Source: an uncultured Omnitrophica bacterium (GTDB lineage: Bacteria; Omnitrophota; Gorgyraeia; JACQQV01). Taken from it: a stretch of DNA of 64,000 bases. Below, in pieces: positions 1,650 to 21,445 of the stretch. The position numbers were made by a program, and so were the translations under genes. Under the pieces are notes generated by a model that had not been told where the DNA came from, made no database searches, and was given only the letters and a program-made list of their open reading frames with translations. Every line of letters starts with the position of its first letter. Within the stretch, counting starts at the first letter, position 1. Location of the stretch: NCBI GenBank assembly GCA_947085655.1, contig CAMTXH010000006.1, forward strand, positions 70,498 to 134,497, read 5' to 3'.

Positions 1650-3187
1650 CGGATGAGTTGTTTCGCCTCCTCAAACCGGAATAAAAGCGAGAAGAGTAGA
1701 TAAGAAATCGCGCCTGATGTAATCGTACCGAGGAATGCCAGTCCCCAGAAAGGCGCGTTTTCTTTGAGCAGGTTGGAAGAGATCCAAGAAAGACAAACGG
1801 CCATCAAAAGCCCCGCACCCAAAAACCGGAGGGACGCCCTGAAAAGACGCCCTCCACCGAACGGGCCGATCCGCCTTCGCAAAAGGAAAAAAAGAAAAAG
1901 GAAATGAGCCGTCGAAGAGATGCTGGTCGCCAGGGCGATGCCGCCGATCTTCATCGGAAACATGAGGATGGCGTTGAAAAGAACATTCACCAAAAGGGCA
2001 AGCGCAGCAACCTTCACAGGGGTCCGGGTGTCCTGAAGGGAATAAAAGGCGGAGGCAAGAATTTTCGAGCCGGAAAACGAAAGAAGCCCCATCACATAAA
2101 AGAAAAGGGCTTGAGCGGTGATGTCCGTGGAGTAGACGTCAAAATTCCCCCGCTCAAAGAGAAGCCGGACAATCGGCCGCGCCAGGACCAGGGTTCCGAT
2201 TACGGCAGGAATCATGGTAAAGAAAACCGATTTCAAAGAAAAAAGGAGAGTCTCTCGGAATTTCTCCAGACTTTCTTCCTGGGCCTGGTCGGAAAGGGTC
2301 GGAAGGGCGGCCGTTGCCAATGAGACGCCGAACAAGGCAAACGGAAGTTGCACAATCCGGTTTGAATAATAGAGGGCAGCCACTCCTCCCTCCCCGACAA
2401 TCATCGAAAGCGAAGCAAAGATCCGGTCTATCATCACGCTGAGTTGGTAGACGGCTGAACCGAAGACCCGGGGAAGCAGAAGGCGCCCGACGTTTTGAAC
2501 CCCCGGATGGCGGGAGGAGAACCGGGCATTAAAAACAAACCCCTTCTGACGGAGAACCGGGAACTGAATGAGAAGCTGCACGACCCCGCCGACCAAGACC
2601 CCGATCCCGAGCCCCAACACTTGCGGTTCCATCCAGGGAACGAGAAGCAAAAGAGAAGCGATCATGCAGCAATTTAAAAGGGACGAACCGAGTGCCGGTA
2701 TAAAAAAATGGCGGAGGGTATTGAGAATTCCCATCCCGTACGCGCTCAACCCGACCAGAAAAAGAAAAGGAAATAAAAGCCGCGTCAGAAAAACGGTCAG
2801 CCGGTATTTCTCCGGATCCCCCAGAAAGCCGGGGGCATAGACCAAAACCAGAATCGGTGCGAGCGCCACTCCGAGAAGGGTGAGAAATCCAAGACGAAGA
2901 AGGGCCTGATTCCAGAGGAGCGCTGCCAATTCCCAAAAGGCCTCCTTCCCTTTCCGCCAGTAGCCGGCAAGGGTCGGAACGACGGCCGCACTCACCGCCC
3001 CCTCCGCAATGAAATCCCGGAACAGGTTCGGAATCGTGAAGGCGACCACAAAGGCCTGCGCCGAGGTGCCGGTGCCAAAGGCCCGGGCGATCAACACATC
3101 CCGGAGGAAGCCAAGGAGGCGGCTTGAAAAGGTGGTCCCTCCCAGAATAGCCGCGGAACGGGCAAGAGGCGCGAAAGTCCTTGACAT
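1628..3187 (-). CDS. murJ: lipid II flippase MurJ/MviN
   Basis: 519-aa polytopic membrane protein. N-terminus (TFSSRLLGFLRDVLIARAFGTG) and overall MurJ-like sequence. Confidence 0.85.
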   Translation of the reverse strand: MSRTFAPLARSAAILGGTTFSSRLLGFLRDVLIARAFGTGTSAQAFVVAFTIPNLFRDFIAEGAVSAAVVPTLAGYWRKGKEAFWELAALLWNQALLRLGFLTLLGVALAPILVLVYAPGFLGDPEKYRLTVFLTRLLFPFLFLVGLSAYGMGILNTLRHFFIPALGSSLLNCCMIASLLLLVPWMEPQVLGLGIGVLVGGVVQLLIQFPVLRQKGFVFNARFSSRHPGVQNVGRLLLPRVFGSAVYQLSVMIDRIFASLSMIVGEGGVAALYYSNRIVQLPFALFGVSLATAALPTLSDQAQEESLEKFRETLLFSLKSVFFTMIPAVIGTLVLARPIVRLLFERGNFDVYSTDITAQALFFYVMGLLSFSGSKILASAFYSLQDTRTPVKVAALALLVNVLFNAILMFPMKIGGIALATSISSTAHFLFLFFLLRRRIGPFGGGRLFRASLRFLGAGLLMAVCLSWISSNLLKENAPFWGLAFLGTITSGAISYLLFSLLFRFEEAKQLIRWISKKE

Positions 3188-3233
3188 GGGCAGAGAAAGT
3201 GTGTTACCCTTTCATAATAAAGGAGTTTGAGTC

Positions 3234-3503
3234 ATGCCGATTAAAAAAGCAGCCCTCAAAAGGATGAAGAGCGACCGGAAGCTGAAGGCACGGAACAGCT
3301 GGGTCCTGAATGAACTGAAAACTCTTTCCCGAAAATTCGAAAAACTGATCGCCTCTAATAACCGGGAAGGAGCCCAAGCACTCTTCAAAGAGGTCAGTCG
3401 GAAATTCGATAAGGCCTTCTCCCGCGGCATTATTCACAAAAACAGGGCCTCCCGAAAGAAGGCCCGTCTTGCCAAGAGACTTTCCAAGTTTTTAGCGGCA
3501 TAG
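3234..3503 (+). CDS. rpsT: 30S ribosomal protein S20
   Basis: 89-aa basic protein (MPIKKAALKRMKSDRKLKARN...) matching S20. RBS AAGGAG lies 7 nt upstream. Confidence 0.9.
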   Translation: MPIKKAALKRMKSDRKLKARNSWVLNELKTLSRKFEKLIASNNREGAQALFKEVSRKFDKAFSRGIIHKNRASRKKARLAKRLSKFLAA

Positions 3504-4454
3504 CGCCAGCAAAAACCTTTCGACTTCTTCCCTTCCCTCTCCTCTCCCTCTCTTCAATCGTTGGTCCATCTTTAAAAGAGCCTGGAGCCCCGATAGAAGT
3601 TCCGGCCCTTCAAAACGGGCTAGACAAGAAAAGAATGTTTCCTCCTCGCCCCAACGAAGCCGGAGCTGCCTTGCCGCCTCTTGAGGGCGGGTTCCGTTTT
3701 CGAGCAGTTCCTTGGCACGGAGCATCCGGCGGAGCTGCCACCCGACCGCTCCCATGATTTCGTGGGGCCGCTCTTTTCCCGTCAAGAGGCGATCCAGGAT
3801 TTTCAACGCTTCAAGACCTTCCCGAAAGGCGATCGCACGGGCGAGGGCAAAACTCGTCTGGCTCAGGGAAAAACCCATCAGAGTTTCCACATCCTTTTCG
3901 TCGATCGTCGGTTTTTCTCCCACAAACGTGGCGAGCGCCTCGACCGCCTGATCGCACTGGAAAAGATCCTCCCCCACCCGCTCCACGAGTGCCTCCTTGG
4001 CCTGGGGTAAGAATTTTTTGCCGGAAGAGGAGGCTCGCTCATCAAGCCACTTCAAAAAGGCGGCCCCTTTGGGAAGTTTGAAGACCGAGACCTGTGCAAG
4101 ATGCGAGAGTTTTTCAAAAAAAGGTCCCCGGAGATTTGTCTCGTCCGTCTCCAAAAGACAGCACGCCCCCCCTGGAAGACGGACCGCCATCTCCAACAGC
4201 CGTGATTGAAAAGTGGGAGGTGTTTTCTCGACGGAGATAATGCGCGTGAGGCGCGGTTGGGTCGCCCATGGGATCGTCTGAAGCGCTGTCAAGACCTCAT
4301 CGGGACGAAAGTTTTTGTCGTCGCCCCGGAACAGTTCACAAGCGACCGACTCCGGGTGAGCGGGGGAGAGTTTTTCCTTGAGCCGCTTCAGGGCTTCGGT
4401 TTTCTCCCAGTTGTTTTCTCCGGCAAAAACAAAAAGGGGGGCTACTCGGGCCAT
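3492..4454 (-). CDS. holA: DNA polymerase III subunit delta
   Basis: 320-aa HolA-like sequence. Conserved leuS-lptE-holA neighbourhood. Confidence 0.7.
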   Translation of the reverse strand: MARVAPLFVFAGENNWEKTEALKRLKEKLSPAHPESVACELFRGDDKNFRPDEVLTALQTIPWATQPRLTRIISVEKTPPTFQSRLLEMAVRLPGGACCLLETDETNLRGPFFEKLSHLAQVSVFKLPKGAAFLKWLDERASSSGKKFLPQAKEALVERVGEDLFQCDQAVEALATFVGEKPTIDEKDVETLMGFSLSQTSFALARAIAFREGLEALKILDRLLTGKERPHEIMGAVGWQLRRMLRAKELLENGTRPQEAARQLRLRWGEEETFFSCLARFEGPELLSGLQALLKMDQRLKRGRGEGREEVERFLLALCR

Positions 4455-9313: not shown

Positions 9314-11805
9314 CCCTGCACCACAAGATTCACCAGTTTCTGGGGAACAATGATCCACTGTTTGACCCGTTTTCCGTTCAGCCACTTTTGAACAGCGCTC
9401 TCCCCCAAAATCTTCTTCTTCAGCTCATCTTCGGAGACGCCGGCGCTCACCTGGAGTTTCGCGCGAACTTTACCGTTTACCTGAACCACCAGTGTAAATT
9501 CCTCTGTTTCCAAGGCGGAAGGATCGTATTCCGGCCAGGGAGCCCGAAAAATACTTTCCTTGTGGCCCAGCAAAGACCAGAGCTCCTCAGCCAAATGAGG
9601 TACAAAAGGAGCAAGAAGATAGACCAAAATTTCGGAGGCCTCCCGAAGGAGGAGTTTTTCGTTTTTCGAAAGGGTCCTTGGGTCCTCTCCGAGAGTGCGG
9701 GCCATCTCATTGACCAGTTCCATGGTGGAAGCGATGGCGGTGTTGAATCGGAAAGAGCCCTCCATATCCTCTGTCACCTTTTTGAGTGTTGTGTGCACTT
9801 TCCGCCGGAGGACCTTCCCCTTTTCATCCGGTACCACCCGTTCCAAAGCGGACTCCTTCGGGGCGCCGCTCGCCGAAAGGGCTTTCAGAAGCCGCCAGAC
9901 CCGGTTTAAAAACCGGAAAGAACCCTCCACCGCCCGGTCATTCCACTCCGCATCCTTCTCGGGAGGGCCGATGAAAAGCGTGTAAAGACGGACCGTATCC
10001 ACACCGAACCGCTCGATTAGTTCGTCCGGACTGACCACATTTCCCTTCGACTTGGACATCTTCATCCCGTCTTTGATAATCATCCCCTGTGTAAAGAGCC
10101 GCTCAAACGGCTCGTCAAAGGAAAGATATTTCAGATCGTGAAGCACCTTTACGATGAAGCGGGAATAGAGAAGATGAAGAATCGCATGCTCCACTCCCCC
10201 GATATACTGGTCAACGGGAAGCCATCGGTTCACCACCTCTGGGTCAAACGGTCTTTTGCTCTCCTTGGGGGAAAGATACCGGAGAAAATACCAGCTTGAG
10301 TCCACAAAGGTGTCCATCGTATCGATTTCCCGACGGGCCCTGCCCCGACACCGGGGGCAGACTGCATTGACAAATTCCGGCACATCTTTCAAGGGAGACT
10401 CGCCGGTCGGTTTAAAAGAGACCTCTTCCGGCAATAGGACCGGGAGCTCTTTTTCCGGCACCGGGAGGATACCGCACCGGTCGCAATAGAGGATCGGGAT
10501 CGGCGCCCCCCAGTAACGCTGCCGGGAAATCAGCCAGTCCCGGAGCCGGTAGGCCGAGGCGCGGCGTCCGATTTTCCTTTTCTCCATGTCATCGGCGATC
10601 TTCTCCATCCCTTCACGGCTCGGAAGGCCGTTAAAAGGGCCGGAATGGACAAGGATTCCTTCCTCTATATAGGCCGCCTCAAGGCGGGAGGCCTCAAGCG
10701 GTTCCCGGGGGTTATCAATCACCACCTCGATCGGGAGGCGGTATTGTTTGGCAAATTCAAAGTCCCTCTGATCATGCGCCGGAACAGCCATCACCGCCCC
10801 GGTTCCGTACTCGAGGAGGACATAATTCGCCACCCAAAGGGGGATTTCCTTTCCTGTCATCGGGTTGGTGACGGTCCGTCCGGTGAAGATTCCCTCTTTC
10901 TTCGTCTCGAGGGCGGAACGCTCCTCCTTGTTCTGTCGAAGAACCCGTTCCACGAATGATTCGATCTCCTGCCGGTTGGGGGAGCGGGCAATCAGCGATT
11001 CGAGGCGGGGATGTTCAGGGGCCATGACCATGTAGGTTGCGCCGTAAATTGTATCAACCCGGGTGGTGAAGCATCTCAGCGGCTCCTCTTCCTTGATTGG
11101 AAAATCAATTTCCACGCCGGTACTCTTTCCGATCCAGTTCCGCTGCATGATCCGGACGCGCTCCGGCCAGTCGGTCAGCTTTTCCAAGTCCAGAAGCAGC
11201 CGATCAGCGTAATCGGTAATCTTGAAAAACCACTGTTCCAAAAATTTCTGGATGACCGGCGTTTCGCAACGTTCGCAGGCACCATTCACCACCTGCTCGT
11301 TGGCCAAAACGGTCTGGCAGGAAGAACACCAATTGGCCGCCGCCCGTTTTTTATAGGCGAGCCCCTTCTCAAAAAGTTTCAGAAAGATCCACTGGGTCCA
11401 TTTGTAGTAATCGGGCAGACAGGAGGTTACTTCCCTCCGCCAGTCATAGCAGACCCCCCACTGCCGGAGCTGCCGTTTCATGGTCGCAATATTGGCGAGG
11501 GTCGATTTCTTCGGATGAAGTCCCCCCTTGATGGCGGCATTTTCCGCCGGGAGCCCGAAGGCATCCCACCCGATCGGGGAAAGAACGTTGAAGCCCTTCA
11601 TCCGCTTGTACCGGGCCACGACATCCCCGATGATGTAATTGCGGCCGTGCCCGACATGGAGCATCGAGGATGGGTACGGGAACATCACGAGGCAATAATA
11701 CTTCCCCTCGGTTCGGGAGGTGTCCGTTTCAAACAGGCGCTCTTTCTCCCAAAACGCCTGCCATTTGGGTTCGATGGTCTGGTACGGATAGGTCTCTTCG
11801 GTCAT
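9310..11805 (-). CDS. leuS: leucine--tRNA ligase
   Basis: HMGH-type HIGH motif (HVGHGRNY) and KMSKS motif present. Start placed at MTEETYPYQTIEPKWQ (the ORF-track start is 24 codons upstream). Confidence 0.95.
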   Translation of the reverse strand: MTEETYPYQTIEPKWQAFWEKERLFETDTSRTEGKYYCLVMFPYPSSMLHVGHGRNYIIGDVVARYKRMKGFNVLSPIGWDAFGLPAENAAIKGGLHPKKSTLANIATMKRQLRQWGVCYDWRREVTSCLPDYYKWTQWIFLKLFEKGLAYKKRAAANWCSSCQTVLANEQVVNGACERCETPVIQKFLEQWFFKITDYADRLLLDLEKLTDWPERVRIMQRNWIGKSTGVEIDFPIKEEEPLRCFTTRVDTIYGATYMVMAPEHPRLESLIARSPNRQEIESFVERVLRQNKEERSALETKKEGIFTGRTVTNPMTGKEIPLWVANYVLLEYGTGAVMAVPAHDQRDFEFAKQYRLPIEVVIDNPREPLEASRLEAAYIEEGILVHSGPFNGLPSREGMEKIADDMEKRKIGRRASAYRLRDWLISRQRYWGAPIPILYCDRCGILPVPEKELPVLLPEEVSFKPTGESPLKDVPEFVNAVCPRCRGRARREIDTMDTFVDSSWYFLRYLSPKESKRPFDPEVVNRWLPVDQYIGGVEHAILHLLYSRFIVKVLHDLKYLSFDEPFERLFTQGMIIKDGMKMSKSKGNVVSPDELIERFGVDTVRLYTLFIGPPEKDAEWNDRAVEGSFRFLNRVWRLLKALSASGAPKESALERVVPDEKGKVLRRKVHTTLKKVTEDMEGSFRFNTAIASTMELVNEMARTLGEDPRTLSKNEKLLLREASEILVYLLAPFVPHLAEELWSLLGHKESIFRAPWPEYDPSALETEEFTLVVQVNGKVRAKLQVSAGVSEDELKKKILGESAVQKWLNGKRVKQWIIVPQKLVNLVVQG

Positions 11806-11810
11806 CTGGA

Positions 11811-11839
11811 TTGTCTTTCGGGAATCTTTACCGTATAAT
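11811..11839 (+). promoter_or_regulatory. sigma70-like promoter for tRNA-Ala (TTGTCT-N17-TATAAT)
   Basis: -35 at 11811-11816 and -10 at 11834-11839, 13 nt before the tRNA 5' end. Confidence 0.4.
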
Positions 11840-11852
11840 AATATCCGATCGT

Positions 11853-11928
11853 GGGGCAGTGGTGCAGTTGGGAGCACACCTGAATGGCATTCAGGAGGTC
11901 AGGGGTTCGATCCCCCTCTGCTCCACCA
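11853..11928 (+). tRNA. tRNA-Ala (anticodon GGC)
   Basis: Hand-folded cloverleaf. Acceptor GGGGCAG/CTGCTCC with the G3:U70 alanine identity pair. Anticodon loop ATGGCAT. T-loop TTCGATC. CCA encoded. Confidence 0.9.
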
Positions 11929-12119
11929 TTTTTTTCATTCCATCCCGCTTGGGGATCGAAGGGAGCCGCGCGCATCCTGTGGATGAAAAGTCCCGAGCGA
12001 ATAGCGAGGGACGTCAGCGCGGCGGGTGGCCGACCGAGCGCGGGTTCAGGGACCCGCGCGAGGCGCCGATCCCCCTCTGCTCCACCATTTTTTTCATTCC
12101 ATCCCGCTTGGGGATCGAA
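11929..12119 (+). repeat. tRNA-associated element copy 1: 107-bp GC-rich core (11961-12067) flanked by a 52-bp direct repeat (11909-11960 = 12068-12119) that includes the last 20 nt of tRNA-Ala
   Basis: Direct comparison of the sequence. The core is >95% identical to 12411-12517. Confidence 0.85.
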
Positions 12120-12153
12120 CAATTTATCATAACATATTGGTGCATAAAAGAAA

Positions 12154-12181
12154 AGGAGCCGTATCAATCGGCTCCTTTTTT
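12154..12181 (+). terminator. rho-independent terminator
   Basis: Stem AGGAGCCG/CGGCTCCT with a 7-nt loop, followed by TTTTT. Confidence 0.7.
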
Positions 12182-12250
12182 CGTTTTTATCATACACGAT
12201 AAAACTGATTTTGTCAATACCCAATTGAAATTTTTTGGTTTTTTTGCGAA

Positions 12251-12279
12251 TTGAAATCCTTTTTAAAGCACTCTATAAT
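12251..12279 (+). promoter_or_regulatory. sigma70-like promoter for tRNA-Leu (TTGAAA-N17-TATAAT)
   Basis: -35 at 12251-12256 and -10 at 12274-12279. The tRNA starts at 12289. Confidence 0.6.
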
Positions 12280-12288
12280 ATGAAATAT

Positions 12289-12375
12289 GCCGAAGTGGCG
12301 GAATTGGTATACGCGCCGGTCTCAAAAACCGGTGGGGGCAACCCTGTGAGAGTTCGACCCTCTCCTTCGGCACCA
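12289..12375 (+). tRNA. tRNA-Leu (anticodon CAA), type II with long variable arm
   Basis: Acceptor GCCGAAG/CTTCGGC. Anticodon loop CTCAAAA. T-arm GAGAG-TTCGACC-CTCTC. CCA encoded. 87 nt. Confidence 0.9.
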
Positions 12376-12400
12376 CTTCTCTGAATTGCTCCAACGTCTT

Positions 12401-12536
12401 GAGGGTCGAAGGGAGCCGCGCGCATCCTGTGGATGAAAAGTCCCGAGCGAATAGCGAGGGACGCCAGCGCGACGGGTGGCCGACCGAGCGCGGGTTCAGG
12501 GACCCGCGCGAGGCGCCGACCCTCTCCTTCGGCACC
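12401..12536 (+). repeat. tRNA-associated element copy 2: same 107-bp core followed by a duplicate of the tRNA-Leu 3' end (cgaccctctccttcggcacc)
   Basis: Near-identical to 11951-12067, but the terminal ~19 nt copy tRNA-Leu rather than tRNA-Ala. The element ends 2 nt before the stop codon of the giant gene. Confidence 0.85.
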
Positions 12537-12538
12537 CC

Positions 12539-15500
12539 TTAGACCTTGTTGAGGTAATCGACATACGCCTCGAAGTAATCCGGGATGACCGGGACAGGGT
12601 CCACATAAATCTTATGCGTGAGGATGGTGAGGAAGGATTTGATGTCTTCCAGGGCTTTCTGGGGATCAGCCGTGCTGACAAATTCGGCAGCCGTATTCAC
12701 CAAAAGAGGGGCAAGATTCAGATAACGGTCATCCCCACCTTTTCGGGGTTCGAAGACCACGAGACGGATACCGGGATTTGAAATTCTAAGGCGCTTCGCT
12801 CTAAGATATCGCTCCCACGCCTTCATCTGGTCCTCACTCGAGACAATGACCAGATTGGAATTTTCCCCAAGGCGTAGTTTAAGGTTGTCCTGAAGAAGGT
12901 TCACCCAGAGAAACTCTTCAATTTGAAATCGATACTGGAGGGGAGGATCATTCTGGTAACGCGCTGACTCTTTTGCATCACCGTAATTTTCCAGAATGTC
13001 ATAGGTGATGACGGCATAAAACTGGTCGCGCCGGAGATGGAACCTTGCCAAATAATTCTCTACCTCCTGCATGGTCACGGTGGGATCCTCGATTAAAAGG
13101 ACATGTTTGAAAACACTCTCTTCGTTATTGAGGGAGTTTCCGGTCTCCCGCGCAAGACGATCCAAAGCCCAAGAGAAACTCTCCCCCATATCCTCCTTTA
13201 ACAGGGAGGATGGAAAAACAAGAATAAACGCCTCTCCGGTTTCCTTTAATCTTTCGCTCGCTTCGCGCATGGCCGGACTGACAGGACGCCGATGGAGCGG
13301 TTCATACGTGGTAAGCCACTCCGGTGTTTTCGCTACATACCGCTCGGCACCGTCCCGAACCCGAATCGGCTCCGGCTGATAAACAACAAGGGCCCGGTTG
13401 TCTTTCCATTCCCTGTGGCTGGCCACTTCGGTCTCCTCCGACAGCCGGTCATTCCGGCGGCTGAGAATGAGCTTTGCTGGTTCGCCGTGGTCCGCCCATC
13501 CGGCTATCTGTTCGGCAAGCCACCGCCTCTGCCCATTGAGGTCGTATGCGATCCCGTCGTCTCCGGCAAGAACCACGCTCTGATCTCCTAAGGGGAGTTC
13601 TCCTTCCAGAAACCATGCTTCCTCGCGTAAATAGGGTCTTATTTTCCGGTCTCCGTAAGAATTGGTAAATCTCCATGAAGGATCCACCCCCTCTGCCCGT
13701 TCGAAGGCCTGGAGGGTTTCATGATAAATCCCTCCCTTTGAAAGGACAATGTTTCTCCCTTTCTCATCCAATGCAGAGTTCTGCTCGGGAGTGGTCAGCC
13801 GGATTTCCCCCTGATCCGCAATCATGAACCAGGCATCCCCTCTTCCGAATCCGGAGACTTTCCGCTGGTCCCCCTTCTTCCGGATAAAGGCAACGGCGGC
13901 GGTTGCGCCCGATTCCATTTGATCCGTCAGTTTCCGAAGTGCTCGATCCGTCGCCCGATGGACCTCCATCATATTTTCGCCATGTTCCCGAACGGCTGCT
14001 TCAAAAAGAGAGGGGAGTCTTTGCTTAATCAAATGCGCCGCCTGTTCGTCACGATGCCCATCGATCACAGCAATTAAATCTCCTTCAACCTTTCCCACCC
14101 TTACCGGATGAACAAGGACGCGACTCTCCTGCCCCTCCCGTCCCTTGCCGATATCGGCCACATAGCTGATCTTCCCGCCCGAGACGGCATCCGTCACCCC
14201 AAATTCGTGCTCCACATTCCAACTGTATCGCTCACCGTTAAAAAGCCAAAATCCGTTTACAAACCTGTGATTCTCCATCCGCCATCGGCCGTCCAGATTT
14301 TCCTCGAAAAGTTCGATTCCCTTTTGAAGTTGTGCCTCCGTATGAAGTTTGTGCCCGAGTTCCGGATGATGCGTATGTCCCGCTCGGACCATTGCCAGTT
14401 CTTCCTGTGCCTGCTCGAGCGCTTCTTGAATTTTCGCCTCCATCAAAAGGTCCACGTCCAGAGGGTTTTTGGTCGCACTCTTGGTTTTACTGAGAATATG
14501 CCTTAGCACCACCTCCAGTCGAAGGAGAACATCCCCAATAATATCATTTTCAGGGCCGGGACCGACTTTCCGGGTAAAGTGAATCAGACGCTCCCCTGCC
14601 TTAACCCGCTGTGCCACGATACTTCCAAAACCTAGATGGGTCTCTTTTCCGTCCTCTACCTCGAAAACGGTGTTTGTGCCGATAAAGGTCGTCTCAAGAA
14701 TGATTCTCCCGGTGGAATCGGGACGATCCAGGATCACCGTGGAGCCGCCCCCCCAGTTGGGGGCATTCGCCACTGTTTTGGTTTCTCCTTTAACCTTGAA
14801 GGTAATTGGGCGTGCAATGAGGTTCAACGCCCTACTGGCAAGGTGGTGGTTTGTGTAAAGTCCCGAGGCAATGACATTCACATGGAGTGCGCCGATACCC
14901 CGGTTGACCCCCGCCACCGAGTCGTCAAAATGGCTCCTAAAGACTGTTGCGTAGGGCTCAAGGAGATGATCTCTTCCGATATTGCTGAATCTTGAGAGAA
15001 AAAGACTCCCTTCCGTCCGATCCCCGATAAACGAATTTTCAACACGGCCCATCCGCAAGCGGACTTCGTCTCCGAGTTGTGAAACGTTCCTGTCGGTCGA
15101 ATCAATCCACATCCGGACAAGATTCTCTTTCTTTCCGATGGCCGCCTGCTTGATTCGGGAACCCCAGATAAAAGTTTCTTCACCGACTACCGTATCTATC
15201 AGATGGGAGCCGAAAATTTGCGCTCCTTTCCGGATAACCGTCTTTCCTTCCAAAATCACCTCCGGCCCGATGATCGCTTCTTCTTCAATTTCAACCTGAT
15301 CGCCGATAATTGCTGTCGGGTCGATATCGGCAATAGCACCGAATTCCTCAAGAGGATTGACTCTCCTTTCACCCTTCGTCGGCTCAAACGTCCCTGGAAG
15401 ATGCGCCTCCGTTAGGATCGGTTCATAGTCCGGCACCCGGTCCCGCGGGATTTTCGGATCGTTTTCAGGAAGGTCTTTGAAAAGAGTTTGGCGGTAATCC

Positions 15501-18500
15501 GATGCAGAAATGCCTTCCAATGAGGCGATTCTTTTTAGATCGAGCGCTTCATGAGTCCATGTGCCGTTCTCAAATTTCCAACGGGAGTCTTTTGTTCCAT
15601 TCTGATATCGCCACGCACCGCTATCGATATGGAGCCGATAGGCCTCCCGCCATTTTTCAAGGAGGGCGATCCGCTCAGGGTCCTGGTCATCCGTGAATTT
15701 TGCCCTTTCCTCTGCAAGCTCCGCCTCCACGAGTGCTTTCCCGGTTTCAAGCATCTCAACCGGAAAGTCGTCCACTTCCGGCTTTTTCTCATCGGGCAGA
15801 GCATCAATCATTTCCTGCATCAGGGCAAAGACTGTGTCGGGGCTTTCGGTAAAAAGGAAAGGAACAGAAGTCGCTTTCCGGCTCAAACCGAACTTTGCCG
15901 CACCCGGAAGTGCCACGCCCCAATCATCCCATGCCGGTTTCCGCCGAACAGGAGAGCCGATCATTGAAAAGGGAGTTGCATGCGTGAGATTCCGGTTGGC
16001 CATCAGTGTCAGGGGATCGGAAGAGGGTTGTCCTCCGGCAAGGGCGATCCACCGTAAATAAGGACCCAAAATTGAAAGAGGATCGACCAAGAGGTAACCA
16101 TGGGCGCTCGATTCCGAGCCGTCGATTCCCCTGATCCGGATAGGCGGCAAAAGCGTTTTCGGATCCCGCGGGACAATTTGAATCATTTCCTCTTCCTTAA
16201 ATTCTTCATAAAGACCGTGTTTATGCGCTTTGAGCGGATTCAAGGTGCCGAGGTAACTCGAATCAACCACGTTCCGTCCGATATGGGCAATCGCTGGAAG
16301 GTTAAAGGTTTTACGGAGATGGAATCTCCGTCCGTCAAAGCGGAGGGAGACGATTCGATTGCGATGGAGAACCGAATCGATAAAGGCTTGGGCATTGAGA
16401 CGGTAGCCATGGCCGAGCCATGCCTCGCTCACTTCAATCGGAAGTTCGTGGCTTCCTTCAATAGAAACGTCATCCTCCGTATGGACAAGGGTCATTTTTG
16501 TATGAAGGAGCCGGTTCTCTTTCCCGATTTCGCTATTTTGATAGACGCCGCTTTCAATTTCCGTCCTTAAGCCGACGGTTGTATTAACGAGTCTTGCGCC
16601 ATTCACCCGCGCTTCCGGACCGACCCGCGTCTGGCTACCGGAGACCGTATATTCCCTTTTTCCGGAGAAATCCTTCCGGTCGAAGGACCAGTCCTCAAAC
16701 TTTCCAGGTTTACCGGTCGTCTCCAAAACAGCGTGGGAGACAATAGCGCGGTCTCCGACCACGGCTCCCGAAACAAAACTCGAATCGACCGCGGAGTCAA
16801 CGCCGAGTTCCACGGCATGATCCTTTGTCGCCTGAATGTAACTTCTCCCGGTGATCCGGGCACCTTGCAAGATCACGATCAGCCCTTCCCGCGCATCAAA
16901 CACCACTTCATCCCCGATGGCTCCGGCCCGCTCCAGTCCGAAAATATTCCGCGGGTCACCCAAGATTTTGTAGGCCCCGTCTTTGGCGCTCCGCCGCAGT
17001 TCGCGAAGCTGTCTCCTCAAATCGCTCAACGCCGAAGCCAGTTCTTCGCCTCGCTCCGATCGTCTTTCATGGGGATTCAGCCGCGCAAAACTGCTTTCGT
17101 GGGAAGAAATGCTTCTCCTTAACTCCTTGATCCGGGTGTGGAGATACCGTTCGGCTTCATACCGCTTCGGTTTTTTGTATTTCCTTGGGCCGCGGTATCC
17201 CCCGTCCCGGGCTTCTCCGGTCAGTCCGTCGCGGGCATTGGCCACACGGAGGCGCAGATCATCCAACTCTCTGATCCGGTCAATGTTTCCGGCGTCCTTC
17301 TTCTCTTCCTCGATGAGTTGACCGGCCTCACCGAACAATTGCTTTCGTTCATCTCGGATGGCGCTCAGCCGGTTCTGCGCGACACCCCCTTTTTCTTCTC
17401 TTGCGAGTTCCTCCAAAGAGGTGATAATTGCCTCAACGCGGGCAACGCGATTCCCGCCATCCTCAGCGTCCGGCGTTAAGTCATACCGTTCGTTTATCAA
17501 CTCCATAATTTCTTCCTGAATATCCCAAAGGCGCTTTTCAATCTCCGGGGTTATCTCTTTTGACCTGAGTTCTTCGCCCTCCAACTCCAATGCTCTTATA
17601 CGTGTGTTGATGTTGCGAATCTCGCGCATCCGGCTGCCCCCCTCCGGCGCTGTAAGGGTGCCTGCGGAAGGATCCCAGTGAGTGAGGTTTGCAAAGTGAA
17701 TCTCCTCTCCCTCCCCGAATTCTTCGGTCTCATGGTCGTCCCCCAGGAAGTAATGGCCTTCGGGAATCAGAGGTTTCTTCCGGTAAACCGTGTGCAAAAC
17801 GCCGGTAATGAGGCCGTTTTCGTCCGCTTCCGGCTCTGCGCCGATCACCTCCCGGACTTCGACTCCCAATGCCTTGAGACTTTCCCGAATATCCTCTCTT
17901 TCAAAGAAAAGGCGCGCTGCCGGCGCAAAACTTCTGGTCAAAATGGTGAGCCGGACCTGCTCATGTCCCCCTCTCCGTTTGAAGGCCTTCACCCACTCCA
18001 CAAATCTTGGATTCAGGGAATACCTTTTGGACATCTCTTCAAAATCATCCGTCCTGAGGAGTCTCGCATACATATTGAGATACGCCTGCCAACTGGCTTC
18101 GCCCGGATTCTCCCTGACTTCGTCGAGTCTCCGGCGGTGTTCTTCATCCACCCACGCCGGGTCGACCCCGGTCTTCTTCACCCATTCCCGGTAAGGGATC
18201 TCCTCGGAAACCACCGTCCCCTCAAAGTCGGCAAAGATATCGTTTTCGGCATAAACTCTTTCGGAGCCATCAAAGGCATTCTCCCTTTCTCCCAAAAACT
18301 CGACCCGGAAGGCCTCTGCCCAAGGAGGATGGAAAGGGGGGATTTTTCCCTTTCCTCCCTTTTCCCCTTCACCTCGCATGACGATTTCCATACCGATACT
18401 CGCCATCTGTCTGGCACGGTAACGGGCCGCCTTTGCTCTCTTTTCGATCTCTGGATCGCCGCTTCTTACTTCAAGCGCCGTCTCAAACGGATAAATGGCG

Positions 18501-21445
18501 TTAAAATCCTCAATTTCAGGCGGAGGAAGAAAAGGAAGATAAATGCCTGTCTCTTTATGTCGGGTTGAATAGGAACGGATCGCCTGAATGCCTTCATGGT
18601 ACACCGCGCGGTGGGAAGGGTGAGGGTCGTTTCTACTGTTTAGAAAAAAGACGACCTCTTTTCCCTTGAGGTTGCCTCCAAAATGGCCCATCAAGAAATC
18701 TTCGAGATGCGATTCCAAAAGCCGACCCCCCTCTTCAACGATTTGTGCATCGGACCAGTCAGGATGGGCCTTGTATAATTGGTGCCCGAGAAGGTTTGGC
18801 TCCGGAAGATCAAGAACCCTGCCGGACTTTATCTCCTCTTTAGCCCGGATGTCGGCAATGTCGCCCCGATCTTCCACTCCCGGTATGGCGGCGCCCGTAG
18901 AGGGAGAGAGAACAAAAATCCGGATCTTCACACCCGCCTTCGCTGCAAGGTGTGCCGTGGCACCCATGAGAACCGCCACATCATCCGGATGGGTGATAAT
19001 GGCGATGATCGGTGTCCCCTTCCTTCGCATCTCCTGGAACTTCCCGCTCCCCCAGATCAGAGGTCTGTTGGGAAGAAAACGATAGGTGCCTCCCTTCAGG
19101 TAGGCAAGCGGGAAGATTTCGGCATTCTGAACTCCAAGGTAGAGTCCGTTTTCCCTCCCCCGCGCCCGGGCCATCTCATCATAGGGCACGCGAAGCAGTT
19201 GGCTTTTGTGCGACTTAATTCCTTTCTCTTTGATGTCGGCTATGTTGTTGGTGTAAGGGACGATGATGCCCGGCTTGTCGAAGAGCTCGGAGGATTGATA
19301 AAAAACGCCCAGCGGAGACTCATTCCATTCCGAAACAGCCCGGCGGACGGCATTTTCAAGGGGAAAAAGATGAAGGGGTAAAAAAACAATGTCGAATGGA
19401 GAAGCCCGAATTTCTTTTTCGAGGGCCTCAAGTCCCTTTTGATCCTCTCCGAAAGCTACTTCCCTGGAAATTTGAAGATGTCGGAAATCATTTTTCCTTC
19501 CCCGAAGCCCGCTCAAAAAACTTCCTGCGTAAAAATCGGCATCCCGTTCGCCGATTTGTACCACCAGGGTCTTCATTCCCTCTGGAATAGGACTCTGATT
19601 GACATGGGGGAGTGTTTCGTCTTTAAAAAGAAACCTCGAGTTGGATTGAAGGAGATTCCGGATGCCTTCAAAGAATTCCCGTTTTCCCCCATCTTGTGCG
19701 CGACGACCGTCCAGTTCACCCCGGATAAGGCCTGTTGCGCCCCGTTTGAGCGCGGGGATTTGGCGCAGATTCTCCCCGGCCGGTCCCGCCTTCTCTTTCA
19801 GAATCTTATGATAAAGTTCAAGATCCGAGGCCTCCGTAATCTTCGGTGCAATCACCATATAGGACAAATTCTGTTCCTTCAAGAGTTTCGTAATCTGGGC
19901 GGTGTGGAATCCGCCTGCAATCAAGACGGCCAGGTCCACGCCTTCCTCCCGAACTTTACTGAGAGTATTGGCCACAAGGGCTTCATCCCGCTTCATCCCG
20001 ACTTTGTAGAAGGACTCGAGAAGTTCCAAATTGTCATCGATCACAGCAGTGTCCTGTGGAAAAGAGAGGGTTACATGATACTGATTCATTTTTTCAATCA
20101 GAAACGGCTTCCAAGTTTGTACGAGGAAGGTCTGGCGGTTTGCCTGATACGTCTCAAGGTCATCGGGTGAGAGATTGAGTTCCAGAAAGCTCAGGAGGAG
20201 ATCAAGACGGTCTGAAAGTTCAGAAAGTTCTTGTTCATCCGGCGAGGTGTAAAGATGGCTCTTAATTTCCTTTTCAAGAACGCGTCCTTCCCGGAAAAGT
20301 TCCACATGGTCCCGCCCGGCATAGAGAATGACATAATCGATGTACCGGTCCAGATCGCCGTGGGAACCGGGAGCCGGATCGTTTTTCTGGAGAACTTCCT
20401 TGAGAAACCCATAATACTCCCCGGGCCCTGTTTCGTTCATTTTATATTTGAGCCCCTTTTCGGCAAGAAGGGTAAGTTCCTCCTTGGAAAGAACCTGTGT
20501 CAACTTCCCGATGAGTGCCTGGTGCTGGCCGTCCACCTTTTCAAAATTGATGCTCTTCTCAAGGAGAGAGGCCTGCAGGAAATTGTCGAAATTGGGGTAT
20601 TGGAAAAGAGGGATGCTGTAACGCCGGGCCAGATCTCCCAAATACTGATAATATTCCACCGCCTGAATCTTCCCTTTGTCATATTCCTCTTTTTTCCGCT
20701 CAAGGGCTTTTATCTCCGGGGAGTAGATGTCGACTTTCAGAGTGTCTGCAATCGCCTCAAGCGCCCGGGCCTTTTCCAAGGATTTTGCCTTGATTCCATC
20801 CACTTTGAAGAAGATGCCCAAGTTCTGGTCGTAAAGCGCTTCATTCTCGATGCCCCAGAGGGTAATCGGTTTGTCCGAAACAATATCAAGGTATTCCTCC
20901 CCCGAAATTTTTCCGAGTTTCAGGTATTTCTCGGCAACCTCCAGACGCCTTTCCGGCGTCGCTTCGGTCCGCAAAAAGGAAAGGCTCGTATCTCCGCTTC
21001 CCCCCTCCACAAGAATCAGACGGAGACCATGCTCCTTGACGAGTTGGCCCAGGATGTTCGCGAGGTTTTTTTGCGCTTCATAATGGACATGAACATCCTG
21101 AATATGGATGATCAGGGGAAGGGGATTTCCTTCGTAGGTTTCGGAAATCCGGCCGTATTCCGGAGGGATCTGGATGGCCTGGGCGAGCGTCTTGGGACGC
21201 TCGCCGAGAAGCGTTAAAGGATCGACGGCCGGGGTAGACTTGACCGGTTTGATATCGGAGCGGGCGGTGACTGTCTCGGTCTTTGAATCGAACGCCTTTT
21301 TTTCCTCAACGGTCTGGAAGATGCTTTTCGCATGGAGAGGGACGTCGGAGAGGAAAAGGAAAGAAACGGCCAAACCCAAAAGCAAAAATCTTTGCCGCTT
21401 CCCTCTTCTAGTTGGTCGAAACGCCATTCCCTTTTCACCACCCAT
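12539..21445 (-). CDS. giant secreted multidomain protein (2,968 aa)
   Basis: Uninterrupted 8.9-kb ORF with signal peptide. Contains an N-module homologous to the 862-aa protein at 22981-25569 (a possible Tiki/TraB/ChaN-like two-His fold), an LmbE/PIG-L-like segment, a long coiled-coil, left-handed beta-helix repeats and a PP2C-like segment. Supporting motifs are listed under the giant-protein domain finding. Confidence 0.85.
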   Translation of the reverse strand: MGGEKGMAFRPTRRGKRQRFLLLGLAVSFLFLSDVPLHAKSIFQTVEEKKAFDSKTETVTARSDIKPVKSTPAVDPLTLLGERPKTLAQAIQIPPEYGRISETYEGNPLPLIIHIQDVHVHYEAQKNLANILGQLVKEHGLRLILVEGGSGDTSLSFLRTEATPERRLEVAEKYLKLGKISGEEYLDIVSDKPITLWGIENEALYDQNLGIFFKVDGIKAKSLEKARALEAIADTLKVDIYSPEIKALERKKEEYDKGKIQAVEYYQYLGDLARRYSIPLFQYPNFDNFLQASLLEKSINFEKVDGQHQALIGKLTQVLSKEELTLLAEKGLKYKMNETGPGEYYGFLKEVLQKNDPAPGSHGDLDRYIDYVILYAGRDHVELFREGRVLEKEIKSHLYTSPDEQELSELSDRLDLLLSFLELNLSPDDLETYQANRQTFLVQTWKPFLIEKMNQYHVTLSFPQDTAVIDDNLELLESFYKVGMKRDEALVANTLSKVREEGVDLAVLIAGGFHTAQITKLLKEQNLSYMVIAPKITEASDLELYHKILKEKAGPAGENLRQIPALKRGATGLIRGELDGRRAQDGGKREFFEGIRNLLQSNSRFLFKDETLPHVNQSPIPEGMKTLVVQIGERDADFYAGSFLSGLRGRKNDFRHLQISREVAFGEDQKGLEALEKEIRASPFDIVFLPLHLFPLENAVRRAVSEWNESPLGVFYQSSELFDKPGIIVPYTNNIADIKEKGIKSHKSQLLRVPYDEMARARGRENGLYLGVQNAEIFPLAYLKGGTYRFLPNRPLIWGSGKFQEMRRKGTPIIAIITHPDDVAVLMGATAHLAAKAGVKIRIFVLSPSTGAAIPGVEDRGDIADIRAKEEIKSGRVLDLPEPNLLGHQLYKAHPDWSDAQIVEEGGRLLESHLEDFLMGHFGGNLKGKEVVFFLNSRNDPHPSHRAVYHEGIQAIRSYSTRHKETGIYLPFLPPPEIEDFNAIYPFETALEVRSGDPEIEKRAKAARYRARQMASIGMEIVMRGEGEKGGKGKIPPFHPPWAEAFRVEFLGERENAFDGSERVYAENDIFADFEGTVVSEEIPYREWVKKTGVDPAWVDEEHRRRLDEVRENPGEASWQAYLNMYARLLRTDDFEEMSKRYSLNPRFVEWVKAFKRRGGHEQVRLTILTRSFAPAARLFFEREDIRESLKALGVEVREVIGAEPEADENGLITGVLHTVYRKKPLIPEGHYFLGDDHETEEFGEGEEIHFANLTHWDPSAGTLTAPEGGSRMREIRNINTRIRALELEGEELRSKEITPEIEKRLWDIQEEIMELINERYDLTPDAEDGGNRVARVEAIITSLEELAREEKGGVAQNRLSAIRDERKQLFGEAGQLIEEEKKDAGNIDRIRELDDLRLRVANARDGLTGEARDGGYRGPRKYKKPKRYEAERYLHTRIKELRRSISSHESSFARLNPHERRSERGEELASALSDLRRQLRELRRSAKDGAYKILGDPRNIFGLERAGAIGDEVVFDAREGLIVILQGARITGRSYIQATKDHAVELGVDSAVDSSFVSGAVVGDRAIVSHAVLETTGKPGKFEDWSFDRKDFSGKREYTVSGSQTRVGPEARVNGARLVNTTVGLRTEIESGVYQNSEIGKENRLLHTKMTLVHTEDDVSIEGSHELPIEVSEAWLGHGYRLNAQAFIDSVLHRNRIVSLRFDGRRFHLRKTFNLPAIAHIGRNVVDSSYLGTLNPLKAHKHGLYEEFKEEEMIQIVPRDPKTLLPPIRIRGIDGSESSAHGYLLVDPLSILGPYLRWIALAGGQPSSDPLTLMANRNLTHATPFSMIGSPVRRKPAWDDWGVALPGAAKFGLSRKATSVPFLFTESPDTVFALMQEMIDALPDEKKPEVDDFPVEMLETGKALVEAELAEERAKFTDDQDPERIALLEKWREAYRLHIDSGAWRYQNGTKDSRWKFENGTWTHEALDLKRIASLEGISASDYRQTLFKDLPENDPKIPRDRVPDYEPILTEAHLPGTFEPTKGERRVNPLEEFGAIADIDPTAIIGDQVEIEEEAIIGPEVILEGKTVIRKGAQIFGSHLIDTVVGEETFIWGSRIKQAAIGKKENLVRMWIDSTDRNVSQLGDEVRLRMGRVENSFIGDRTEGSLFLSRFSNIGRDHLLEPYATVFRSHFDDSVAGVNRGIGALHVNVIASGLYTNHHLASRALNLIARPITFKVKGETKTVANAPNWGGGSTVILDRPDSTGRIILETTFIGTNTVFEVEDGKETHLGFGSIVAQRVKAGERLIHFTRKVGPGPENDIIGDVLLRLEVVLRHILSKTKSATKNPLDVDLLMEAKIQEALEQAQEELAMVRAGHTHHPELGHKLHTEAQLQKGIELFEENLDGRWRMENHRFVNGFWLFNGERYSWNVEHEFGVTDAVSGGKISYVADIGKGREGQESRVLVHPVRVGKVEGDLIAVIDGHRDEQAAHLIKQRLPSLFEAAVREHGENMMEVHRATDRALRKLTDQMESGATAAVAFIRKKGDQRKVSGFGRGDAWFMIADQGEIRLTTPEQNSALDEKGRNIVLSKGGIYHETLQAFERAEGVDPSWRFTNSYGDRKIRPYLREEAWFLEGELPLGDQSVVLAGDDGIAYDLNGQRRWLAEQIAGWADHGEPAKLILSRRNDRLSEETEVASHREWKDNRALVVYQPEPIRVRDGAERYVAKTPEWLTTYEPLHRRPVSPAMREASERLKETGEAFILVFPSSLLKEDMGESFSWALDRLARETGNSLNNEESVFKHVLLIEDPTVTMQEVENYLARFHLRRDQFYAVITYDILENYGDAKESARYQNDPPLQYRFQIEEFLWVNLLQDNLKLRLGENSNLVIVSSEDQMKAWERYLRAKRLRISNPGIRLVVFEPRKGGDDRYLNLAPLLVNTAAEFVSTADPQKALEDIKSFLTILTHKIYVDPVPVIPDYFEAYVDYLNKV

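Follow-up and report, generated by a model that had tools for sequence, protein, structure and literature searches.

The window examined here, a stretch of 64,000 nucleotides (nt) from an uncultured Omnitrophica bacterium (GenBank assembly GCA_947085655.1, contig CAMTXH010000006.1), contains only two tRNA genes, both on the plus strand, and each of them is followed on that strand by a copy of the same composite element. The genes for tRNA-Ala(GGC) (11853-11928) and tRNA-Leu(CAA) (12289-12375) were identified with ARAGORN and confirmed by Rfam, and both are intact with an encoded CCA. The element consists of three parts: an antisense arm of 9-10 nt, which copies in inverted form positions 54-63 of the tRNA (the T-loop and the 3' strand of the T stem); a core of 106-108 nt; and a sense arm of 20-21 nt, which repeats the tRNA from C56 onward.

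Behind tRNA-Ala, a spacer of 22 nt (trailer block S; 11929-11950) leads to the antisense arm (GGGGATCGAA, 11951-11960), which is the exact reverse complement of tRNA-Ala 54-63. The core of 106 nt (11961-12066) follows, and then the sense arm (CGATCCCCCTCTGCTCCACCA, 12067-12087), whose 21 nt are identical to C56-A76 of the tRNA. Peculiar to the tRNA-Ala locus is a second exact copy of the spacer and antisense arm with no core after it (12088-12119). Because of this duplication, the exact repeat that brackets the core at this locus is 53 nt long (11908-11960 = 12067-12119), one more than the 52 bp given in the first-pass annotation of this DNA. Behind tRNA-Leu, the corresponding parts are a spacer of 25 nt (12376-12400), the antisense arm (GAGGGTCGAA, 12401-12410; again the exact reverse complement of tRNA positions 54-63), a core of 106 nt (12411-12516), and a sense arm (CGACCCTCTCCTTCGGCACC, 12517-12536) that is identical to C56-C75 of tRNA-Leu. 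This last arm ends, as first described, 2 nt short of the stop codon (12539-12541) of a convergent open reading frame (ORF) of 2968 aa. Both antisense arms are preceded by CTT.

The two cores are identical at 104/106 positions. Both mismatches (12014/12464, T>C; 12022/12472, G>A) are substitutions of the Leu copy relative to the Ala copy and the family consensus, and the A at 12472 disrupts a C-G pair of the helix termed Hc below. A 36-nt piece of the core occurs exactly twice in the window and not once in 100 shuffles, and the GC content of the core reaches ~70%, against ~50% in the surroundings. The first-pass annotation had already recognized the near-identical GC-rich core on the same strand behind both tRNAs, as well as the ending of each copy in the 3' end of its own tRNA (here 56-76 for Ala and 56-75 for Leu), and both descriptions hold; what it overlooked is the inverted, tRNA-specific arm 5' of each core. 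Within the window, the two arms of each copy pair with one another over 8 bp, and the differences between the Ala and Leu arms are compensatory. By base complementarity, each core is predicted to sit on the tip of a hairpin specific to its tRNA. In the Ala copy, the first 8 nt of the antisense arm form the 5' strand of this closing helix (P1) and the first 8 nt of the sense arm form its 3' strand, and the other 13 nt of the sense arm, including ACCA, form a single-stranded tail.

Sigma-70-like promoters, identified as consensus matches only, lie directly 5' of the tRNA genes on the plus strand (TTGTCT-17-TATAAT at 11811-11839 for the tRNA-Ala unit and TTGAAA-17-TATAAT at 12251-12279 for the tRNA-Leu unit). 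The first terminator after tRNA-Ala is a predicted bidirectional intrinsic terminator at 12149-12181, past the element, where it ends the tRNA-Ala unit. Because the promoters are directly 5' of the tRNAs and the terminator is beyond the element, the element would most simply belong to the pre-tRNA transcript. By these consensus sites it has the position of a tRNA trailer RNA, that is, on the same strand, 3' of the tRNA, and inside the tRNA unit. At the related locus L010 (loci from relatives are given L numbers here), the element lies between tRNA-Ala and tRNA-Leu, the next tRNA begins 56 nt on, and there is no obvious terminator. A strong minus-strand promoter-like site (TTGACA-17-TATGAT, 11/12; 12189-12217) is also present between the two tRNA units of the window and faces the bidirectional terminator.

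The tRNA units are flanked by the gene for leucyl-tRNA synthetase (LeuRS), for which the closest relatives are Omnitrophota, and the syntenic locus (LeuRS, tRNA-Ala, tRNA-Leu, and the gene for the giant convergent ORF) was compared in relatives with 76-79% LeuRS identity. L005, L006, and L007-9 are element-free at both tRNAs. In L010-12 and a metagenome contig, L014, tRNA-Ala is followed by a diverged element complete with its two arms (GGGATCGAA ... CGATCCCCCTCTGCTCCACCA). Two further loci retain remnants. In L004, the core is cut off after its first 8 nt and gives way at once to downstream sequence, with spacer and antisense arm preserved in front of it; in L024, nothing but GGATCC remains beside the spacer, which looks like the expected leftover of a deletion between the GATC tetranucleotides of the two arms. 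The spacer of the window's Ala copy can be aligned with those of L010, L004, and L024. A metagenome scan with two conserved blocks of the element returned nine loci, all but two of them (L014 and L020) spurious; in L020 the element lies behind a third tRNA, tRNA-Phe(GAA) (3502-3577, minus strand). The T-loop of this tRNA (UGCAAGU) is unusual, with G in place of the normally invariant U55 in the Rfam alignment, and both arms conform to it: AGACTTGCA is the exact inverse complement of 54-62, and CAAGTCTCTCTCCCGGCACCA is the same as C56-A76.

The total sample comprises five sequence variants from four independent loci, and one type of core is found behind tRNA-Ala, tRNA-Leu, and tRNA-Phe. The first-pass annotation would have been contradicted had the core been confined to its two sites, or had other copies lacked an adjacent tRNA 3'-end duplication; copies with this duplication lie beside tRNA-Ala in L010 and L014 and beside tRNA-Phe in L020. 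In all three tRNAs, the unusual T-loop of tRNA-Phe notwithstanding, the sense arm begins at C56. The antisense match is exact over 9-10 nt at 4/4 loci, and a sense match of at least 6 nt at the same place occurs at 0/4. A tandem tRNA pseudogene, in which the left arm would be a sense T stem and the core would lie within the T-loop, was rejected on this count, with the Phe locus being decisive.

Other attempts to enlarge the family added no copies. A covariance model built from the five copies recovers these and no others in 210 kb of collected sequence, including the two in the 64-kb window. Additional LeuRS relatives proved to be empty, truncated, or non-syntenic at this locus, and further tRNA-Phe loci sought via the DUF2490 neighbor of L020 were not recovered, the synteny not being kept. 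The 20-mer GGATGAAAAGTCCCGAGCGA gave two chance in-gene matches only in genome contigs, with a pattern that extended into the variable helix Hb and was blind to copies of the L010 type. A six-frame peptide query was swamped by word matches, and phmmer with one reverse frame gave only low-complexity matches. Pattern scans of viral contigs, and BLAST against plasmids and phages, returned 0 matches. The tRNA-Leu (9429-9512) and tRNA-Ala (9882-9956) genes of L004, both on the minus strand, lack the encoded CCA that is present in the window and all other relatives. L014 is otherwise identical to L010 but for four T/A-to-G/C changes at ~365-395, all in the tip of helix Hd, where the stem shifts register and persists; these changes represent either real hypervariability or sequencing error.

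Five distinct sequences were aligned over 137-140 nt, and a secondary structure was derived from the alignment. In coordinates of the Ala copy, it is composed of the helix P1, formed by the arms (11951-58/12067-74), and of five helices within the core: Hc (11965-71/12017-23), Ha (11973-77/11981-85), Hb (11990-98/12004-12), He (12029-37/12060-66), and Hd (12038-44/12053-59). Standard pairs occupy 86% of the cells, and the rest are mainly recurrent tandem G.A pairs. Eight pairs are changed on both sides, 0/500 shuffles match the covariation score or the paired fraction, pairing drops to only 29-43% when partners are slid by 1-3 columns, and RNAalifold concurs on the main helices. The changes can extend over whole helices: Hb is entirely resequenced in L010 (CGAGCGAAUAGCGAG to GCCACAGAUCGUGGC) and is still a 9-bp hairpin with nine stacked positions, Hc changes from GCCGCGC/GCGCGGC to GCCGAGC/GCUCGGC, and Hd occurs in three variants, GCGCGGG/CCCGCGC (the hairpin first seen in the window), GUGUGGG/CCCACAC, and AAGUUGGG/CCCAACUU. 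Together these observations are good evidence, although from a small sample and not conclusive, that the core is conserved as a folded molecule.

Covariation of this kind fits RNA and single-stranded DNA alike and cannot distinguish between them. The two strands of the element do differ: the tandem G.A mismatches, found at three places on the plus strand, are U.C/C.U on the opposite strand, and as G.A motifs they are stabilizing on the tRNA-sense strand only. The plus strand also folds better (z of -3.0 and -2.65, vs. -1.96 and -2.17 for the minus strand).

Integration by a tyrosine integrase classically leaves direct repeats of a tRNA 3' segment that start in the T-loop, and the first-pass annotation read the duplication at both tRNAs as the relic attachment (att) site of an integrase-bearing element. 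If an island had once occupied each tRNA 3' end and shrunk by deletion to ~140 bp, identical deletions must have struck two tRNAs of one genome, and a different organism must have been left with this very remnant at a third; a single attP cannot match three tRNAs. The 138-141 bp between the direct repeats contain no gene remnant, the ORFs that span them being spurious read-throughs. Given the tRNA-specific inverted arm and the helices preserved by compensatory changes as well, we consider this origin extremely improbable, notwithstanding the repeats. The other two suggestions made at that stage have fared better, since a structured RNA that is linked to and co-transcribed with the tRNA is now better supported, and a non-autonomous mobile element is a live rival to it.

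In its present form, this main rival would be a mobile DNA element with a folded, single-stranded attachment site. The opposed tRNA-like arms, ~106 nt apart, would anneal in single-stranded DNA and rebuild a T-loop/T-stem duplex, and a recombinase encoded elsewhere would exchange strands with the tRNA gene at 55|56, which would yield the intact tRNA, spacer, inverted arm, core, and displaced 3' end in the order in which they occur. Such a history accounts for direct repeats (20-23 nt long, and in one case 53 nt) with the same T-loop start in three tRNAs, and for presence, absence, and remnants among relatives, including L006, in which the sequence is exactly as predicted after loss by recombination between the repeats. 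It also accounts for an apparent older, decayed 3'-end copy farther downstream. In addition, structure that is kept while sequence diverges is typical of attC-like sites too, and the architecture of CTXphi provides a precedent (PMC3089051). A further point in its favor is that a metagenome-assembled genome from the same species (GCA_964374045.1, with identical LeuRS) has a contig, CAYJWX010000004.1, of which the end (L003 position 1) corresponds to window position 11960, so that it breaks exactly where the antisense arm meets the core, as would be expected of a repeat, because assemblers stop at repeats; the element explains assembly breaks beside tRNA genes in Omnitrophota genomes.

Several features fit this rival poorly. 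If such a site were at work, the spacer would be part of the element, but the Leu spacer looks native and the Ala spacer occurs in L024, where the element is absent. A single enzyme would need to act at three tRNAs, with both arms written anew each time, and no recombinase was found among the scanned window ORFs or at related loci. The core is multi-branched, with conserved junction strands and tandem G.A pairs, rather than a simple imperfect hairpin; the attC R-box consensus is absent; and the viral, plasmid, and phage collections contain no copies. On balance we regard such a mobile element as somewhat unlikely.

Between the window and L010, the tRNA-Ala locus is unchanged in the tRNA (76/76) and the sense arm (21/21) and nearly so in the antisense arm (9/10), and identity is 82% in the core (with most stem changes compensated), 68% in the spacer, and 58% downstream. 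Because 21 unchanged positions are improbable at the neutral-looking rate of the flanks (0.65^21, ~1e-4), the sense-arm tail is either selected or young. Downstream of tRNA-Ala, in front of the sequence TCATAAC, a block that resembles tRNA-Ala 64-76 is seen in a hand alignment of every lineage, including the empty ones, in variously decayed form (TCAACTCCAGCCA in L024, TCAACTTTAACCCA in L007; also in L004, L005, and the window at ~12120-12133). At the Leu locus, the spacer is similar to the trailers that tRNA-Leu natively has in L010 and L004, both of them element-free at this tRNA (~16/26 positions, with GAATT at matching offset, by hand alignment). Because of this resemblance, the insertion appears to comprise the antisense arm, core, and sense arm, and to have entered ~25 nt into the trailer, not within the T-loop.

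The Leu copy is missing from L010, L004, and L006, and its two substitutions in the window, one of them pair-breaking, are derived. The Ala and Leu cores of the window are 98% identical, vs. 82% for the orthologous Ala cores, so that the Leu copy either was duplicated recently from the Ala copy, 450 bp away, or has been homogenized with it by gene conversion. This closeness invites a reading in which the element is a functionless by-product of replication error: template switching between quasi-palindromic T arms would have copied the Ala core to the Leu locus, and quasi-palindrome correction would have perfected the arms. The CTT to the left of both antisense arms, a CGA microhomology between the core end and the T-loop, and the two uncompensated changes in the Leu copy can all be counted toward such an error, as can the distance and identity of the window copies. 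It leaves unexplained, however, both the tRNA-Phe copy, which lies on another contig with the same junction and a different T-loop, and the retention of the fold over 18% divergence at tRNA-Ala, and we judge it very improbable.

We tentatively favor another reading, to which we would assign a possible rather than a probable status: that the element is a new, modular structured RNA made within the pre-tRNA trailer in one clade of Omnitrophota. It is favored because the core is branched with conserved junction strands, the G.A pairs are strand-specific, the position within the tRNA unit is fixed, and no mobility gene is found. Regarding the last point, a Pfam scan of 28 of the window's ORFs, and the called genes of the syntenic left flank, revealed no integrase, reverse transcriptase, transposase, or RNA-guided nuclease. 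The identifiable products among the scanned window ORFs are housekeeping proteins (ACCase, MnmE, Mur ligase, PurH, and others; four have no Pfam match), the left flank likewise holds housekeeping genes, and the same housekeeping genes, with no recombinase, TnpB, IscB, or Cas, are the neighbors at related loci.

In the model that we propose, the element would be transcribed with its tRNA from the tRNA promoter and would function as RNA, acting on or with its own precursor. Two partners would be available to the antisense arm: the decoy copy, with which it would form the 8 bp of P1, and the real T arm, where pairing over 9-10 bp is slightly more stable (by a computed 1.4-3.7 kcal/mol). With P1 closed, positions 64-76 (ACCA among them) would stay single-stranded and imitate the 3' end of the tRNA, and the distal 3' half could replace the proximal half opposite the 5' acceptor strand of the tRNA. 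In the minimum-energy folds of all four full precursors, the 5' acceptor strand does pair with the distal 3' copy. The transcript would accordingly have two mutually exclusive folds; which of them prevails, a processable, correctly folded tRNA or a sequestered one, would be settled by the conserved core, whether through its own folding, a ligand, or a protein bound to it. New loci would be rare, with a templated duplication rebuilding both arms from the recipient tRNA gene. Pairing of the tail with the 5' part of the core (GGGAGCCG or GGGUGG) as an acceptor-like stem was also considered and was rejected, as the register varies by tRNA and a U is replaced by G in L010.

A number of observations weigh against this model. 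The covariation sample is small (five variants, four loci) and comes in part from one diverged lineage, and the Leu copy has an uncompensated C.A mismatch. The P1-closed fold lies 2-7 kcal/mol above the minimum-energy fold of the isolated element, in which G-rich junction strands are instead paired with the C/U-rich tRNA copy. Self-complementarity of the T-loop cores (TCGA and TGCA) makes the apparent match of the antisense arm to positions 54-55 ambiguous. That the sense arm is intact could mean recent origin rather than selection, and the 98% core identity could be the product of gene conversion between repeats 450 bp apart. The pattern of gain, loss (the deletion remnants of L004 and L024), and decay suits mobile DNA, and the block downstream of tRNA-Ala is suggestive of older, decayed copies from earlier rounds of the same duplication. 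Finally, we know of no mechanism for re-templating both arms.

The constant core and variable arms also allow the element to be read as the guide RNA of an RNA-guided system encoded elsewhere, with the core as scaffold and the 20-21-nt 3' tail as guide. A scaffold with a variable 3' tail is the layout of the TnpB omega-RNA or the Cas12 crRNA, and here the tail has both a guide-like length and a fixed start at C56 in three tRNAs. From C56 on, the guide would be identical in sequence to the tRNA gene's non-target strand, leaving the antisense arm either to mask the seed or to recognize the opposite strand, and the invariant G53-T54-T/G55 immediately upstream would serve as a motif like the target- or protospacer-adjacent motifs (TAM/PAM) of such systems. 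This motif is missing at the guide copy, which is preceded by GGCGC, so that the flank differs between target and guide locus. That the tail equals tRNA gene positions 56-76, preceded in the gene by G-T-T/G, follows nevertheless from the anatomy under every model, and the C56 start follows equally from the others. Such a guide would, moreover, be aimed at an intact tRNA gene of the cell itself, the 8 nt with which it begins are engaged in P1, no likeness to any Rfam scaffold was detected, and neither the 28 scanned window ORFs nor the related loci include a gene for TnpB, IscB, Cas, or a recombinase. A guide function therefore appears quite improbable to us. Less so, if still doubtful, is a broader alternative in which the element is the scaffold of a new tRNA-gene-directed system. 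Its arms would read both strands (antisense 54-63, sense 56-76), and a recombinase, nuclease, or reverse transcriptase whose gene lies elsewhere would use it to home to tRNA genes. Rewriting of the arms for each new host tRNA would make it a self-retargeting mobile or guide element.

If the trailer-RNA reading is true, the element would represent the first family of structured RNAs to be organized around the sequence of its own host tRNA, and the antisense T-arm clamp with its 3'-end decoy would point to a cis-acting control or quality check on tRNA folding and maturation. To our knowledge, no such cis-acting device is known in bacteria. If the mobile reading is true, the element would be a minimal, gene-less tRNA-targeting element that matches every new target on both strands, and how its target-matching arms are templated would be a question relevant to programmable insertion. 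Under either reading, it provides a testable handle on the non-coding biology of Omnitrophota, an uncultured phylum.

The giant ORF that converges on the tRNA-Leu unit (12539-21445, minus strand; 2968 aa) has a PIG-L deacetylase domain (aa 815-955) as its sole Pfam match. Its orthologues, of 2681-3467 aa, occupy the same place in L004 and L005, and two ORFs without a Pfam match (503 and 862 aa) lie upstream of them.

Other hairpin-closed insertions were observed at tRNA genes of the relatives. In L020, a second, unrelated GC-rich insertion of this kind (3170-3316, minus strand; TGGTTCGAC...GTCGAACCA) lies directly 3' of the tRNA-Phe element. Its flanks, CTCCCGGCACCA and CTCCCGGTACCA, repeat 12 nt of the tRNA-Phe 3' end, and L006 has a shorter relative of this insertion (1611-1800) that does not adjoin any tRNA end. 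In L005, a hairpin-rich leader of ~150 nt (9433-9622, minus strand), which is not present in relatives, is located between the TATAAT box and tRNA-Leu and ends in GGCCGAAGCGAC directly before the tRNA 5' end, GCCGAAG; it looks like an upstream counterpart with a copy of the tRNA 5' end. In the tRNA-Leu trailer of L010 (~2390-2560, minus strand), a perfect 11-bp inverted repeat (GCAATGTTGCC ... GGCAACATTGC) around ~110 nt forms another hairpin-closed trailer insertion, between tRNA-Leu and the giant gene.

When compared with known systems, the element belongs in full to none of the classes tested, and we know of no described RNA or mobile-DNA family with a conserved core between inverted and direct copies of the host tRNA from T-loop to 3' end. 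A search of the surrounding 1 kb region with Rfam 15, and then of the element alone with lax filters, passed only the tRNAs, and the best match on the core (E=0.042) scored 17 bits against a gathering score of 49.5. Hammerhead, HDV-like, and twister ribozymes, C/D-box RNA, RNase P CR-I, and group II intron domain 5 were compared by eye and rejected, since the motifs misfit or the strand order was impossible. The tRNA att sites (attL/attR) of tyrosine-integrase elements are similar in that the tRNA is left intact and foreign DNA lies between direct repeats of its sequence from the T-loop on through the 3' end. In contrast to them, the element has ~140 bp between its repeats, no integrase or island remnant, three tRNAs rather than one, an added inverted copy of the T-loop and T stem, and a conserved fold.

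A different kind of att site is provided by the attP(+) of CTXphi, in which two dif-like sites in opposite orientation, ~90 bp apart, form a forked hairpin (PMC3089051). Like this site and the attC of integrons, the element has opposed target-like sequences ~90-110 nt apart that can anneal into a hairpin mimicking the target duplex (with perfect arms of 7-8 bp at all loci), and its structure is conserved above its sequence (PMC3089051). Unlike them, it is branched and cargo-free at ~140-160 nt, its target is a tRNA gene, and its arms change with the tRNA. It also has neither a Xer or IntI site consensus nor a recombinase found with it; the arms GGGGATCGAA, GAGGGTCGAA, and AGACTTGCA fit neither the RYYYAAC/GTTRRRY of attC nor the dif-like consensus. 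Miniature inverted-repeat transposable elements have terminal inverted repeats of their own, whereas the inverted repeats of the element copy the host tRNA and the ends of its core are only weakly symmetric; a target-site duplication of 2-3 nt might be recognized in CGA (Ala, Leu) or CA (Phe).

The TnpB omega-RNA, the Cas12 crRNA, and the IS110 bridge RNA share with the element a constant structured scaffold and variable, target-matching ends, one sense and the other antisense to the target in the element, as in scaffold-plus-guide or two-guide RNAs. It differs from these in that its arms cover the same target positions and pair mutually, rather than addressing left and right halves, in that its target is the adjacent, essential tRNA gene, and in having no linked effector. 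The msr-msd RNA of retrons resembles the element in its inverted-repeat ends, which close small hairpins and one long hairpin. The element differs from it in the lack of an Rfam match and of an adjacent reverse transcriptase (3' of the element is a terminator or tRNA-Leu at the Ala locus and the end of the convergent ORF at the Leu locus), and in closing repeats that are tRNA-derived. With regard to position, the element has a parallel in the 3'ETS-leuZ of Escherichia coli, a short Hfq-dependent sponge RNA from a tRNA trailer that has no tRNA-derived arms. Like 3'ETS-leuZ, the element lies in a tRNA trailer, inside the tRNA transcription unit and without a promoter of its own; unlike it, the element combines a conserved multi-helix core of 106 nt with copies of the T-loop and 3' end of the tRNA that it follows.

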